DNA from: an uncultured Gammaproteobacteria bacterium | Lineage (GTDB): Bacteria > Patescibacteriota > Microgenomatia > Daviesbacterales > UBA10151 | Direction of reading: 5' to 3' | Length of the DNA: 64,000 nucleotides | NCBI GenBank assembly: GCA_964446685.1 | Contig: CAYUPO010000003.1 | Location: forward strand, 39,183-103,182 | Shown: one piece after another, positions 15,947 to 20,959 of the stretch | How positions within the stretch are numbered: position 1 is the stretch's first letter | Layout of the letters: every line of letters starts with the position of its first letter | Made by a program: the position numbers and the translations under genes | The notes under the pieces: generated by a model | Database searches by the model: none | Told to the model about the DNA's origin: nothing | The model's input: the letters and a program-made list of their open reading frames with translations, nothing else

Positions 15947-17788
15947 GTGAGAATATCAAATATCCAATATCCAATATCCAATGCCAAATGGGGTTCTAAG
16001 TTTACTTCTTATGTGCTATCTGCTATCAGCTCTCAGCTATCTGCCAACTCTCAAGCTGGTGTTGCTCAATTAGCTCTGGTTATGCTTCTTCTAGCAGGTG
16101 TCGCTGTAGGAACCTATGTGGTCCAAAATAGAACTAATCTCATCCCCCATGCACAGGAATGCACTGAAACCAGACTTGATAATGAATGCCGTGACGATGG
16201 GTATATATATGAAATTTATCAGGACTGTAATGGAGATTATAGAAGAGAAAACACAAATGAAACATGTGGAGAAAAAGATCAGACGGAATCCTGCGGTTAT
16301 GATCAGAAATCTGTAGAATACAGCTGCAAAAATGGCTATCGATGTTTTGAAGATTATTTCAAAGATTCTTCAACCAGCTGTAAATGGCAATATAAAGATC
16401 CACATTTTCACTGTGATGAAGATTCAAAATGTAGTACCGATGCCAAAAATAGCGCAGATAAAAATGAAGAAGAATGTCGAAATTCCGGTAACGTTTGGGA
16501 AGATAACACCTGTAAACAAAAAGCCGTCTCAAAAGGGCCATCTGGTCCAGGAAGCTCAGATGATAACAAAACGGCTGATAACACTTCATATGATCAGGGT
16601 GACTGCCGGGATGGAGCTAAAGTTTATAAAGACGGATACACCTGGATTACTTACTGTACTAAAGTCTGTAGTAAAAACTCTGATTGTCCAAAAAATACGA
16701 CTGATGGTGCAGTCAATCCTGAAACCAGTAACTGGTGTTACGGCTTTAATGGCGGTAAAGCTCCCCGTTGTATGATGCTGGTTCAGAGTGATAATAAAGA
16801 AGTCAATGACCAGTCAAGGAAAAGCAGTAACTCAAAAGCAGTTGAGGAGATTAAATCTACTATTGCTCAAGGTGGAGATCCTAACCCAGCGGCTGCCGCA
16901 GCTACTCAAAGTTCTTCAGCTGATTTTAAAGCTAAAATTGATGCTCAAAATACCCAACGAGGCAGCCTCGTCAGTGAGCTGGCCACTGTTTTAAATAATG
17001 CAGGATCAGGCAATAGTTCACTCACTGGCGCAGTTAACCGAGCCCAATCCCTGATTACTTCAGCTGCTTCAAGTGCTGCTGCCTGCTATACCGGAACTGA
17101 CAAACCATTAAATGACAGCTGTGATGCTACTACCCAGGCTGCCAACGATATCGCGGTTGCTGCTTCAAGGGTGGCTTTATTTGATGCAGTAGCAGCCGGT
17201 GTCCCTAATACCTGTGTCAAAGTTGATATGGCTGTTGGAGCTAATACTTCCAATTCAATTATAGAAGTTGCACCAGCTGAAAATGCCTCCAATCTATCCC
17301 GGTTATTTATGTGTCGCGGAGCAGAAAGCGCCACAGGTAAAAAAGATGGAGATATTAAATGGCGGGTTCGCGATAATAATGGCTCACTTCAAGAAGTATC
17401 CCAAACATCATTAACTCAGCTTGGTTTACAAAATGGCCAAAAACAAATTCTTACAATTCCAGAAAATTTTATAGTTAGACGTAATAACGCGGCAGCCTTA
17501 TCATCTCAGCCTGCATTTGCTGGGACAACTACCTTAAACTTTAATGAAACATCAAGCACTGCGTGGAAGGAAGTAGCTGTTAGTAATTGTTTAAGTAACT
17601 GCTCTAGTTTTCCGTCTGGCGCTGCTTGTTATCAAAAAGGAACTACCAACGAATATAATTGTAATGGAGCCAATCAAACGCAATCAACCGTTTCGGAAAA
17701 GAAGAACTTAGCGAAAAATGCTACCTGCAACGATAATAAAGAATGTAGATCAGGCCAGTGCAATCCGGGGACATCAAAATGTTTATGA
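15947..17788 (+). CDS. Cys-rich secreted/anchored protein, member of a local paralogue family
   Basis: Anchor 'GVAQLALVMLLLAGVAVGTYVVQNRTNLIP'. Roughly 40 Cys residues. C-terminal region 'CVKVDMAVGANTS...MCRGAESATGKKDGDIKWRVRD' is shared with 18138 and 20228. The start codon is uncertain because the 5' end overlaps the (AATATCC)3 repeat. Confidence 0.55.
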   Translation: MRISNIQYPISNAKWGSKFTSYVLSAISSQLSANSQAGVAQLALVMLLLAGVAVGTYVVQNRTNLIPHAQECTETRLDNECRDDGYIYEIYQDCNGDYRRENTNETCGEKDQTESCGYDQKSVEYSCKNGYRCFEDYFKDSSTSCKWQYKDPHFHCDEDSKCSTDAKNSADKNEEECRNSGNVWEDNTCKQKAVSKGPSGPGSSDDNKTADNTSYDQGDCRDGAKVYKDGYTWITYCTKVCSKNSDCPKNTTDGAVNPETSNWCYGFNGGKAPRCMMLVQSDNKEVNDQSRKSSNSKAVEEIKSTIAQGGDPNPAAAAATQSSSADFKAKIDAQNTQRGSLVSELATVLNNAGSGNSSLTGAVNRAQSLITSAASSAAACYTGTDKPLNDSCDATTQAANDIAVAASRVALFDAVAAGVPNTCVKVDMAVGANTSNSIIEVAPAENASNLSRLFMCRGAESATGKKDGDIKWRVRDNNGSLQEVSQTSLTQLGLQNGQKQILTIPENFIVRRNNAAALSSQPAFAGTTTLNFNETSSTAWKEVAVSNCLSNCSSFPSGAACYQKGTTNEYNCNGANQTQSTVSEKKNLAKNATCNDNKECRSGQCNPGTSKCL

Positions 17789-18096
17789 GAAACAAGTTGT
17801 CAGCTATCATTCGTCAGTCTTCAGCTTCAAATGAGAATGGAGTTGGACTAATGATTATCATTGGAATTATTTCTGTGCTGCTGATTGGAGCAATCGCTGT
17901 GACGACTCCGCAAATAAAAAAATTTATCCTTCCATCATCTGCTGAACCTTCCCCTACTTTAAGTCCTGCACCAGAAACAGTTCAACTCTCAGAAAAACAG
18001 CAGTTATATTTGCGTAATAAAGAACGGATCCAGCAGGAATTAAACCTGGATGACACCCAATTTAATCTTTTAGTTGAGAGTGCTGCAAAAAACTAA
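17758..18096 (+). CDS. Small single-TM protein
   Basis: 112-aa ORF with one hydrophobic helix. Overlaps the upstream gene end by 31 nt. Confidence 0.35.
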   Translation: MQSGDIKMFMRNKLSAIIRQSSASNENGVGLMIIIGIISVLLIGAIAVTTPQIKKFILPSSAEPSPTLSPAPETVQLSEKQQLYLRNKERIQQELNLDDTQFNLLVESAAKN

Positions 18097-18137
18097 ACTC
18101 GTTGACAATATGCCCGCAAAACTAATATTGTAAGGAT

Positions 18138-20105: not shown

Positions 20106-20107
20106 GA

Positions 20108-20230
20108 AAATTTCTAAATACTAATTTCTAATTTCTAAACAAATTCCAAATCCTAATGACTAAACTCTTAGAATCTGGACATTAGACATTATTTAGATAT
20201 TAGAAATTAGAGTACTTAGAAATTTTATTG
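20108..20230. repeat. Inverted-repeat intergenic element, family A/B (copy A)
   Basis: Arms 'CTAATTTCTAATTTCTAA' and 'TTAGAAATTAGAGTACTTAGAAATT'. Core 'CTAAACAAATTCCAAATCCTAATGACTAA...GACATTATTTAG' matches 44376..44512. Confidence 0.55.
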
Positions 20231-20959
20231 ACAACCTTTCCAGATCCAGTTACTCTTAAATATATGCGTCAGAAAATTATTACTTCGACTCTTACTTACT
20301 GGGGGTTTATCGGGATTTTAGCAATGATTGCATTTTTTCTTTTTTCTTCCCATATTTATGCTCAATCCCCTTCCTCTAATCTCAGTTTTACTCAAAAACG
20401 GTTAAATGCCATGAAAGAATATCAAAAAGCTGCCGGCAGGTTTGCCTGGCTGGAAAAAATTCCTGAAGCTAAACCCTACTATGATGCCTATATTGTCCAA
20501 AATGAAGTGGGGGTTGTTGAAGGTGACAGATGTCGGGAAAATCTGGAACAGCAGAGCACCCAGAAAAGAAAAGATTGTGACAATAATATCAAAACCCATT
20601 TCAAAAAAATCCGTCATTATTACCGGTTTATGAAATATCAGGAGCTAGTACATGGCGCTAAAAACGTTTGTGTGAAAGCTGATATGGGTGTAAATCCTGC
20701 TTTAACTGCCAAAGGAATCGCCAAATCAAACTTCTCTCCTGATCCGGCTAATCCAAAAGAAACCGGCCTAACAGGGCAGTCTACCGTTTATCTGTGTGCT
20801 GACGGTGAAGGCAAGAAAAAATTGCGGGTTAGAACAGCAAGTGGTAAATATGTCAAATTAACAGCCGCAGATCTAGCCAGACCAGAATTGCAGATTTCCA
20901 ATTTGCCGCCAGCAGCAAATATAGCAGCGTTAAAAGATAAAATAGATTTAGATAAGTGA
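20228..20959 (+). CDS. Secreted protein sharing the C-terminal 'CVKADMG...YLCADGEGKKKLRVR' domain with 15947 and 18138
   Basis: N-terminal TM. 'KNVCVKADMGVNPALTAKG...TGQSTVYLCADGEGKKKLRVRTASGKYVKL'. Confidence 0.5.
   Translation: MTTFPDPVTLKYMRQKIITSTLTYWGFIGILAMIAFFLFSSHIYAQSPSSNLSFTQKRLNAMKEYQKAAGRFAWLEKIPEAKPYYDAYIVQNEVGVVEGDRCRENLEQQSTQKRKDCDNNIKTHFKKIRHYYRFMKYQELVHGAKNVCVKADMGVNPALTAKGIAKSNFSPDPANPKETGLTGQSTVYLCADGEGKKKLRVRTASGKYVKLTAADLARPELQISNLPPAANIAALKDKIDLDK

Follow-up and report, generated by a model that had tools for sequence, protein, structure and literature searches.

The present analysis concerns a cluster of genes on the forward strand of contig CAYUPO010000003.1 (GenBank assembly GCA_964446685.1, placed by GTDB in the Patescibacteriota), within a stretch of 64,000 nucleotides (nt) that is referred to here as the window; coordinates are those of the window unless another locus is named. 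Three of these genes, g1, g2 and g3, encode predicted exported proteins that share a module of about 190 amino acids (aa), for which no relative was found in the libraries searched. The nine-gene cluster runs g1-s1-g2-s2-s3-g3-p107-Ig-like-Ig-like and adjoins a gene for alanine racemase. An initial annotation, made from the letters and open reading frames (ORFs) of the stretch, had described three consecutive forward-strand genes beginning at 15947, 18138 and 20228; the three ORFs are present there, but they are not consecutive, as the small genes s1, s2 and s3 lie in between.

The largest of the three, g1 (15947-17788, +), starts with GTG and encodes 613 aa: a leader (residues 1-37) that holds 7-nt arrays, a hydrophobic anchor (38-69), variable Cys-knot modules (~70-215), a constant Cys module of the form CRDGA...CSKNSDCP...TSNWCYGF...RCMMLV (~216-280), the shared module (~320-526) and a C-terminal Cys knot (~540-613). 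The product of g2 (18138-19508, +; 456 aa) is built from a leader (1-48), an anchor (49-80), a beta-rich domain (~82-207), a Thr/Pro/Lys linker with TAPKTG repeats (~208-255) and the shared module (256-453). In both proteins the export features are a polar leader and a 21-residue hydrophobic anchor. By contrast with these composite proteins, g3 (20264-20959, +; 231 aa) carries a classical signal peptide followed by the module alone. The ORF listed for g3 began at the TTG at 20228; its start is placed at the ATG at 20264 on the basis of the start of the matching family protein P0001 (g3 itself) and of the N-terminus M(R/K)QKII of the orthologues. The signal peptide reads MRQK, then LTYWGFIGILAMIAFFLF, then SSHIYA/QSP (slashes mark the cleavage or anchor junction here and below), with small residues at -1 and -3, and by eye is kept in the orthologues. 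The sequences thus agree with the earlier proposal that all three proteins are exported, g1 and g2 by leader and anchor and g3 by signal peptide. The label of Cys-rich paralogues suits g1, with 30 Cys, and not g2 (7) or g3 (4). Likewise, the shared domain is C-terminal in g2 and g3, whereas in g1 it is followed by the Cys-rich tail.

Around the three large genes lie those of small anchored proteins: s1 (17785-18096, +; ~103 aa), a paralogue of s2 whose start overlaps the g1 stop, which has orthologues in the related loci L007 and L015 and is called as a gene in L012; s2 (19513-19794, +; MNQKG/LTVIF...); and s3 (19833-20105, +; MPYSQKG/ISSMIV...). Next comes p107 (21041-21364, +), a conserved cluster member encoding an anchored protein with an acidic two-Cys tail, and the cluster is closed by two anchored proteins with Ig-like (Big_6/Big_13-like) domains (21479-21988 and 22220-23266, both +), whose best Pfam match, Big_6 at E=1.7e-4, falls under the curated cut-off.

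The shared module

The domain common to g1, g2 and g3, postulated from inspection, is borne out by several comparisons. In composition-adjusted BLASTP, g1-g2, g1-g3 and g2-g3 match at E=7e-07, 5e-04 and 4e-07 over a region with the CxKADxG motif and the basic strand, and a hidden Markov model (HMM) built from g3-type proteins only, with g1 and g2 excluded, finds g1 at E=1e-5 and g2 at E=5e-5. It finds no further match among the 337 stop-to-stop ORFs of the window, which has exactly three module genes. Similarity of composition only, the outcome named beforehand as fatal to the proposal, is ruled out by shuffling: the real sequences score 24.9 and 20.7 bits, and the highest scores among 500 shuffled versions of each domain region are 2.8 and 2.0. 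Together these results speak for genuine homology, not compositional likeness. In the HMM alignment the envelopes run from residue 346 to 526 in g1 and from 256 to 453 in g2, corresponding to about 66-229 of the g3 profile. The module maps to 16904-17524 (+) in g1, by BLASTP, HMM and shuffle test, and to 18903-19496 (+) in g2, by BLASTP, HMM envelope and AlphaFold2 (AF2) model. Pairwise identity within it is ~25%. HMM and AF2 both give about 190 aa, three helices plus a sheet, in place of the ~100 aa first assumed, and its hallmark is CVKADLG...RLYLCxGxDGKxKWRV.

An AF2 model of g3 from 18 sequences has a mean predicted local distance difference test score (pLDDT) of 84.5 and a predicted template-modelling score (pTM) of 0.73. 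It comprises the signal helix, helices at residues 42-65, 70-90 and 99-129, strands at 135-138, 173-179, 185-190 and 196-199, and a C-terminal helix. The elements recur in the same order in a separate, shallow model of mature g2 (3 sequences), where 10-residue blocks have a mean pLDDT of 73-89 over model residues 181-330, the three helices and sheet, and lower values in the last stretches. In that model the central domain is beta-rich at low confidence and the Thr/Pro linker is disordered.

Conservation across 82 aligned members follows this framework: C89, C104, R120-L, G130-x-P, C135-V-K-A-D-L-G, R-x-x-L-C177-x-G-x-x-G and K185-W-R187-V. Four Cys and the basic G-K-x-K-W/L-R-V strand are therefore kept, in line with what had been read from the three window proteins. 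C135 and C177 are both present in 78 members, both lost in 2 and never found singly; for C89 and C104, 60 members have the two, 2 have neither and 5 are discordant. Because the cysteines are kept or lost in pairs, they most likely form two disulfides, C89-C104 at the junction of helices 2 and 3 and C135-C177 across strands 1 and 2. In candidate phyla radiation (CPR) bacteria an enrichment of type IV pilus components and of disulfide-forming proteins of the MdbA-like and VKOR types is reported (PMC6744442), and oxidoreductases of the latter kinds could form the disulfides of the module. The charged residues are also conserved: R120 (69/81) in helix 3, K137 (62/82) and D139 (78/82) in CVKADLG, and K185 (60/77) and R187 (70/77) in KWRV. 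Since the same charged residues recur in g1-, g2- and g3-type proteins, a common ligand may be envisaged, either an envelope polymer or one and the same face on a partner module.

Between strands 1 and 2 lies a strongly conserved loop of low model confidence, NPKETG(L/R)T (P0001 residues 162-170; window ~20747-20773), which is found in g3-type and many other members and is missing from g1 and g2. Its resemblance to an LPXTG-type sortase signal was considered and rejected: the loop is internal, folded strands follow it and no C-terminal membrane segment is present.

A rare family with varied payloads

The domain had been described as one that could not be assigned to any family, and it remains so after wider searching. 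No family in Pfam, NCBIfam or PHROGs is matched by the module, the best profile match among PDB sequences has E 0.49, and Foldseek (g3 and g2 models against PDB, g3 against BFVD) returned nothing at E<=0.001, the best E values being 0.51, 0.038 and 0.10 and template-modelling (TM) scores lying at ~0.1-0.3. The weak Foldseek rows, namely trypanosome VSG and ISG65, the Plk1 polo-box and a Photorhabdus lectin, were discarded, with TM-scores <=0.2 and, for VSG and ISG65, probabilities <=0.07. The analogy to tripartite alpha-pore-forming toxins, which also consist of three paralogous helical proteins of one operon, fails on the lack of a fold match and on helices that are too short. Known surface-anchoring domains (SLH, LysM, cohesin, dockerin and the like) gave no Pfam or NCBIfam profile match for g1, g2 or g3.

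The family is rare. A search of 5.8e9 clustered proteins gave 19 matches, and among 1.84e9 cluster representatives, searched exhaustively with a profile, 71 have E<=1e-3, of which 34 reach <=1e-10 and 14 reach <=1e-30; one of the 71, P0073, was disregarded as a low-complexity repeat protein. A search with g2 as the query brought back just two orthologues, low-complexity words having filled the candidate list. Members come in two forms. The short, g3-type form (~215-250 aa) has an ordinary signal peptide and the module alone; the long form has leader and anchor, variable middle parts and then the module. A Cys module of the form C..Y.W..C...CSxNSDCPxNT...TSNWCYxFxxGxRC, seen in g1 too, is recurrent among the middle parts, and other long members carry shuffled small Cys-knot modules. 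In P0051 the module is fused to a GH5 cellulase domain (6.6e-6), in P0062 to a Peptidase_C39_2 domain (3.2e-7), and the middle part of P0028 contains a weak GH39-like region. In all family members the module stands downstream of an export signal. As the middle parts differ so widely (Cys modules, GH5, GH39-like, C39-like), the module travels with differing extracellular payloads.

A conserved tandem cluster

Related loci from other genomes or samples, numbered with the prefix L and compared as consensus assemblies, show that the arrangement is not peculiar to the window. The conserved tandem cluster was found in L002, L007, L010, L012, L014 and L015, and with the family HMM all seven loci that have enough upstream sequence contain two to three module genes in tandem on one strand. 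L010 and L012 have the order g1-s1-g2-s2-s3-g3. L002, at ~70% nucleotide identity to the window, reads g1'-s1'-s3'-g3'-p120-Ig-like-Ig-like-alanine racemase, and the more distant L007 reads g1-like(785)-s(96)-g2-like(582)-g3-like(340)-p92-Ig-like. Downstream, L008 and L015 continue as the window does, with alanine racemase, GAPDH, a cohesin protein and PGK.

The N-terminal anchor and the route of export

The export signal and anchor of g1 (16058-16153, +) follows a leader-terminal Gly and reads G/VAQLALVMLLLAGVAVGTYVVQNRTNLIPHA; g1 and g2 share it as G/VAQLALV(M/I)LLLAGVA(V/I)GTYVVQNRTN(L/V)(I/S)P(H/N)A (E=2e-15). The near-identity of the two anchors noted initially is therefore real, but it does not indicate recent paralogy: the coding DNA of g1 and g2 differs there at synonymous sites, which argues for constraint at the protein level rather than recent copying, and the same type of anchor occurs on unrelated proteins. 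Among 16 aligned anchors the Gly (-1) and the downstream T, P and A are invariant, and position +1 is F, V, I, L, A or Y. The proteins g1, s1, g2, s2, s3 and p107 all fit one scheme, in which a polar leader ends in Gly at -1 and is followed by a hydrophobic +1 residue and ~20 hydrophobic residues in all. Beyond this stretch there is often an invariant motif, VQxRTNxxPxA.

The scheme recalls the class III, prepilin-peptidase type of signal, and some short leaders of the lineage, MNQKG/L in s2, MPYSQKG/I in s3, MQRG/F and MSNQSG/F, resemble those of its pilins. A genuine pilin is encoded in the window (3529-4029, -; MKTAHFQNRSG/FTLIEL) and matches N_methyl at 1.4e-9, and a canonical pilin in L015 reads ...SNQNG/FTLVEL. 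In the cluster anchors, residue +5 is A, L or V and not Glu, and neither g1 and g2 nor the small cluster proteins matched any Pfam family, N_methyl (PF07963) included, at E<=1. An anchor of the same type heads a dockerin protein (5835-7160, -; VVSQKG/FAPIL...YLVQQKTNLSPKA), a cohesin/dockerin protein (12117-13937, -) and a GH85_C-like protein; a TSP1/dockerin protein (1809-2942, -) keeps the hydrophobic stretch and the post-anchor motif and lacks the Gly/+1 junction. A search of 5.8e9 sequences with a 40-residue anchor profile, which is too short to reach significance, gave one hit. The protein encoded at 56662-58044 (-) is among the window proteins with a generic export signal. No PilD gene was found among the window ORFs scanned.

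On this sequence evidence the anchor would be a class III signal without Glu+5 that serves as the general surface-protein route of this genome, one pilin-like signal heading many unrelated surface proteins; the alternative is an uncleaved signal-anchor. Together with VQxRTNxxPxA, the pilin-like export signal may represent a lineage-specific sorting signal. The likeness to type IV pilins extends to the Gly-ending polar leader, the ~20 hydrophobic residues, the attachment to large non-pilin domains and the presence of small proteins alongside. The differences lie in the lack of Glu+5 and of an N_methyl match, in leaders of up to 48 residues with 7-nt arrays and in the additional VQxRTNxxPxA motif.

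Could the cluster then be an accessory set of a type IV pilus-like or pseudopilus system, with g1 and g2 as modular tip adhesins, s1-s3 and p107 as small subunits and the module docking to the filament? The leaders ending in (Q/N/S)(K/R/N)G before F/V/I/L and a hydrophobic stretch would suit it, as would the clustering of several small signal-bearing proteins with large ones and the canonical pilin genes nearby in L015 and the window; modular pilins reportedly exist in Streptococcus sanguinis. Such a set nevertheless seems unlikely. Besides the missing Glu+5 and N_methyl match, an invariant Pro breaks the anchor helix ~29 residues past the Gly, the predicted structures show no pilin fold, cohesin, dockerin, TSP1 and GH85-like proteins bear this signal too, which makes it a general one for export, and g3 uses an ordinary signal peptide.

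A possible role for the module

CPR bacteria live attached to other microbes, and their surface proteins beyond type IV pili are little known. The reading favoured here, to which a probability of about 45% is given, is that the module forms the constant portion of surface proteins, close to the cell, and serves in their retention or assembly. The g1, g2 and small proteins would be exported by the pilin-like, Gly-ending leader without Glu+5 and g3 by its ordinary signal peptide. The module would then fasten the proteins to the cell through a conserved and probably anionic component of its envelope, or would join g1, g2 and g3 as a complex, and the variable outer parts would carry out binding or hydrolysis. 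SLH and cohesin-dockerin modules offer a parallel, in that one conserved non-catalytic module is found on exported proteins with varied payloads (GH5, peptidase, binding modules), and the cohesin and dockerin proteins of the window bear the same N-terminal signal. The module differs from them in showing no likeness of sequence or fold, consisting as it does of helices and a small sheet with two likely disulfides.

It is important to point out that several observations weigh against this reading. The case for retention or assembly is built on architecture, conservation and context, no sequence or structural relative providing a function. A second retention module would be redundant in the anchored g1 and g2 unless the anchor is cleaved, and the invariant T..P.A past the anchor is not a standard signal-peptidase site. 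The structural model of g2 was built on just 3 sequences. Finally, g2 is missing from L002, and the g1-type protein of L007 is without C135 and C177 on direct reading and is not matched by the family HMM. With one partner absent and another degenerate, a fixed three-part complex of g1, g2 and g3 is not universal.

A more far-reaching proposal combines these elements into a new CPR surface-display system, comprising a pilin-like leader without Glu+5 and sorting by VQxRTNxxPxA, a two-disulfide module that possibly forms a g1/g2/g3 hetero-complex for host attachment, and palindromic 7-nt elements, one kept at the nucleotide level within a translated leader and the other invertible, that would both tune expression; as a whole it is rather speculative and would be somewhat surprising if correct in every part.

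Alternatively, the module could be a receptor-binding domain by which an episymbiont directs its hydrolases and adhesive modules to the surface of a host instead of keeping them on its own. Cultivated CPR bacteria are described as episymbionts (PMC12206443). The fusions to GH5 and to a C39-like peptidase are compatible with targeting, and a ligand common to the family is suggested by the conservation of the basic strand and of the charged residues. The position of the module, cell-proximal or C-terminal, with the strain-variable parts N-distal, runs counter to it, as do the strong purifying selection described below and the fact that the stand-alone g3 is best conserved; no host is identified by the data. 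Host targeting is accordingly regarded as improbable, and retention or assembly is kept as the preferred role. In either case, the module is rare, well conserved and confidently predicted as a fold with no library relative, and offers a handle on CPR surface-layer or host-contact proteins.

Heptanucleotide arrays in leaders and beyond

The leaders of g1 and g2 hold short 7-nt tandem arrays, identified with Tandem Repeats Finder (TRF): 15952-15982, (AATATCC)x4.4, and 16010-16044, (TATCTGC)x5, in g1 (+), and GAAATTC and AAATTTC arrays at 18151-18263 (+) in g2. Further arrays lie upstream of g3 (20109-20138 and 20193-20224) and in the leader of p107 (21062-21092, +; (CGATTTA)x4.4). In g1, g2 and p107 they sit between the start codon and the anchor. 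The statement that such repeats overlap the 5' end of each module gene thus applies to g1 and g2 and not to g3, whose true ATG at 20264 lies past the arrays. Nor are the repeats special to these genes. There are 11 strict period-7 arrays in the window, against none in 20 Markov shuffles and zero to one for each other period from 4 to 12. They are located at 3500-3533, 15952-16044, 18151-18263, 20109-20224, 21062-21092, 23338-23400, 24632-24680, 26265-26297, 44473-44501, 60636-60695 and 63850-63877, in leaders, in promoter regions and between convergent genes, at 3' ends; L002 likewise has 7-nt arrays. Arrays and palindromic elements (see below) pervade the genome and enter coding leaders, which matters for gene calling.

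Judged from codon and start-site patterns, the array-bearing leaders of g1 and g2 are most likely translated, because the codons of GVAQLALV differ only synonymously, 18138 is the sole canonical start in frame ahead of the anchor Gly in g2, and the orthologues of g1 and g2 type share a start of the form MPFKQ or MPxxK. A start of g2 at a TTG after a GAGGT Shine-Dalgarno-like site was rejected, as the residues GVAQ ahead of it are kept between g1 and g2 despite synonymous differences, and no comparable start exists in g1. The array units of g1 are stop-free in all frames, and its second array (16010-16044) is replaced in L012.

Promoter scanning gave sites that score 10/12 for both genes. The g2 promoter, TTGACA-N18-TATTGT, occupies 18102-18131 (+); its hexamers are conserved in the window, L010 and L012, with an 18-nt spacer of constant length and variable sequence. 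As the ATG follows just 6 nt past this conserved promoter, the g2 mRNA is probably leaderless. The promoter-like site of g1, TTGACA-N18-TATCGT at 15905-15934 (+), is the top-scoring site of the scan, has the same geometry and lies 12 nt ahead of the GTG.

The g2 leader shows no difference between the window and L012 and, relative to L010 (83% identical over 17714-18924), five substitutions and no indel in 144 nt. All five anchor differences in the L010 comparison fall at third codon positions, and the five leader differences at positions 1, 2, 2, 2 and 3. This absence of codon-position bias indicates that the leader is conserved as a nucleotide sequence rather than as a peptide. From 18147 to 18268 (+) it forms an imperfect palindrome of ~120 nt with 7-nt arrays of opposite sense (GAAATTC and AAATTTC) as arms; the 60-nt arms are 75% complementary, the palindrome starts 9 nt past the ATG, and the predicted RNA hairpin has -32.4 kcal/mol (z -4.9). 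RNA structure may be part of the reason for the conservation of the leader at the nucleotide level.

A search of the literature on heptamer arrays in CPR bacteria turned up nothing relevant. In heterocystous cyanobacteria, short tandemly repeated repetitive (STRR) sequences form heptamer arrays, and the Correia elements of Neisseria are small palindromic intergenic elements. The likeness to the former is that many short 7-nt arrays of differing sequence occur in intergenic DNA; to the latter, that some arrays of the window form 120-130-bp palindromic units with terminal inverted repeats. Both differ in the organism concerned and in that the window arrays intrude in frame into coding leaders. 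A third comparison concerns the HMW1/HMW2 adhesins of Haemophilus influenzae, which are controlled by heptanucleotide simple-sequence repeats (PMC12721329). In both cases 7-nt repeats stand 5' of surface-protein genes, here with a strong predicted RNA hairpin in the 5' region; the window arrays differ in lying in an apparently translated leader, in their many units, in their genome-wide occurrence including 3' ends and in a copy number that is stable between strains.

A palindromic element upstream of g3, inverted between strains

Between s3 and g3 lies a palindromic element of 126 bp (20104-20229), bounded by the 19-nt inverted repeats AAGAAAATTTCTAAATACT and AGTACTTAGAAATTTTATT and extending from the s3 stop to a TTGACA at 20228; its hairpin is predicted at -31.3 kcal/mol (z -5.4). 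In L012 (4172-4297) and L013 (1862-1987), from two runs, the element is inverted between identical flanks. Compared with these loci the whole element is identical at 120/126 positions when reversed and at 65/126 in forward orientation, and the non-palindromic central 50 nt at 47/50 and 16/50; the inversion break falls inside the terminal inverted repeats. Since the longest perfect arm stretch reported is 12 nt, an ambiguity of assembly is unlikely. The scan found no promoter-like site facing g3 in the invertible core, and the only predicted promoters that overlap the element belong to the minus strand and lie at the left arm (20118/20116 to 20089). Scanning of the window ORFs revealed no recombinase domain.

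The inversion is thus best described as a strain-level polymorphism and not as a demonstrated switch. Invertons of the fimS type are invertible DNA switches and are similar in that a surface-protein gene is immediately preceded by a short segment with inverted repeats at its ends, which occurs either way round; they differ in that here the orientations belong to different strains, no promoter-like site facing g3 was found in the core and no recombinase was found nearby.

Elsewhere in the window a related palindromic element lies at 44378-44497. An element of a second type (8958-9085, in the insertion region of the 23S rRNA gene) has a counterpart that fills the site upstream of g3 in L010 (3964-4101). 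These further copies suggest mobile elements that resemble miniature inverted-repeat transposable elements (MITEs).

Taken together, arrays and element might be regarded as phase-variable contingency loci, with frameshifts through slippage of the 7-nt units, inversion upstream of g3, or both. A unit of 7 is not divisible by 3, the arrays lie between start and anchor in three genes, the crossover of the element falls within its terminal repeats, and heptanucleotide repeats reportedly control the Haemophilus HMW adhesins. These considerations are outweighed by the stability of the arrays. Repeat number is identical in L002-L005 (four samples) over overlaps of 2-3.7 kb and the same in L001 as in the window, and with the L010 and L012 comparisons no copy-number change was seen among these consensus assemblies; because of this stability between strains, the arrays, which would sit in a dispensable leader, are not read as a slippage switch. 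Arrays also occur at the 3' ends of convergent genes, and the palindromic arms of the element yield the same junctions and hairpin whichever way round it lies. Phase variation by either route is judged quite improbable.

Age of the paralogues and selection

The initial annotation had interpreted the cluster as a product of local duplication, followed by divergence under selection as is typical of surface antigens. As the three proteins are only ~25% identical, separate orthologues exist for every type and distant genomes keep the tandem order, g1, g2 and g3 are instead old paralogues within a conserved cluster.

The window and L012 are 96.7% identical over 16582-21091 and were compared by Nei-Gojobori counts, which give the ratio of non-synonymous to synonymous differences per site (pN/pS). 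The C-terminal part of g1 has a pN/pS of 0.03 (29 synonymous and 3 non-synonymous changes), g2 has 0.11 and g3 0.28, the last from two changes only. In g2 the central domain has 11 synonymous changes and one non-synonymous change, and the module one of each. With values of 0.03-0.28, selection between these two strains is purifying and not diversifying.

What does vary is the outer part of g1 (residues ~70-215), which in L012 consists of different Cys-knot modules, identity rising to 99% from DQGDCRDGA onwards. The exchanged segment spans 16151-16591 of the window and 170-658 of L012, with a sharp recombination boundary near 16582, in strains that are otherwise 97-99% identical. The variable outer region thus arises by module exchange and not by point divergence. 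The earlier expectation of variable central regions therefore holds for the N-distal Cys modules of g1 and fails for the central domain of g2; the most variable part of g2 is its Thr/Pro linker, with 9.3% mismatches and two in-frame indels. The module types of g1, GYCENGWTFxGGDAGDDNNW... and SDxNEEECNxAGGxWxDNRC, also build other g1 orthologues and the N-terminus of a giant ORF of 4822 aa.

That the genes form a young family of surface antigens, recently duplicated and diverging in their central regions through diversifying selection, is, despite predicted export, the exchange of g1 modules and the variable g2 linker, very improbable, and for recent duplication already largely refuted, given the low identity, the separate orthologues, the order kept in distant genomes, the low pN/pS and an anchor identity explained by protein constraint. 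The reading as antigenic variation is mostly not supported.

Further features of the window

The giant ORF (28464-42932, -) starts with a signal peptide and N-terminal repeats of the Cys-knot types of the g1 orthologues, and has a Fic domain near residue 4050. Two paralogous multi-pass membrane proteins of 545 aa with a PAS domain, and no recognised output domain, are encoded at 4094-5731 (+) and 13960-15597 (-); one 545-aa PAS membrane protein lies directly upstream of the g1 cluster in divergent orientation.

The 23S rRNA gene (7321-11258, -) measures 3938 nt against a model of 2925 nt and contains ~1 kb of insertions, including an ORF (9206-9730) that matches nothing in Pfam. Some 4 kb away from it lies the 5S rRNA gene (3276-3392, -), with pilin, PAS and dockerin genes in between, and no 16S gene adjoins the 23S gene. 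The insertions in the 23S gene, the unlinked rRNA layout and the content of pilin, cohesin/dockerin and giant proteins give the window a CPR-like appearance, and the bacterium is probably ultra-small.

Finally, an ADP-ribosylglycohydrolase is spread over two adjacent ORFs (27434-27943 and 27956-28426, both -) that cover profile positions 1-142 and 151-287, and represents either one gene broken by a frameshift or other interruption, or a gene that truly consists of two parts.

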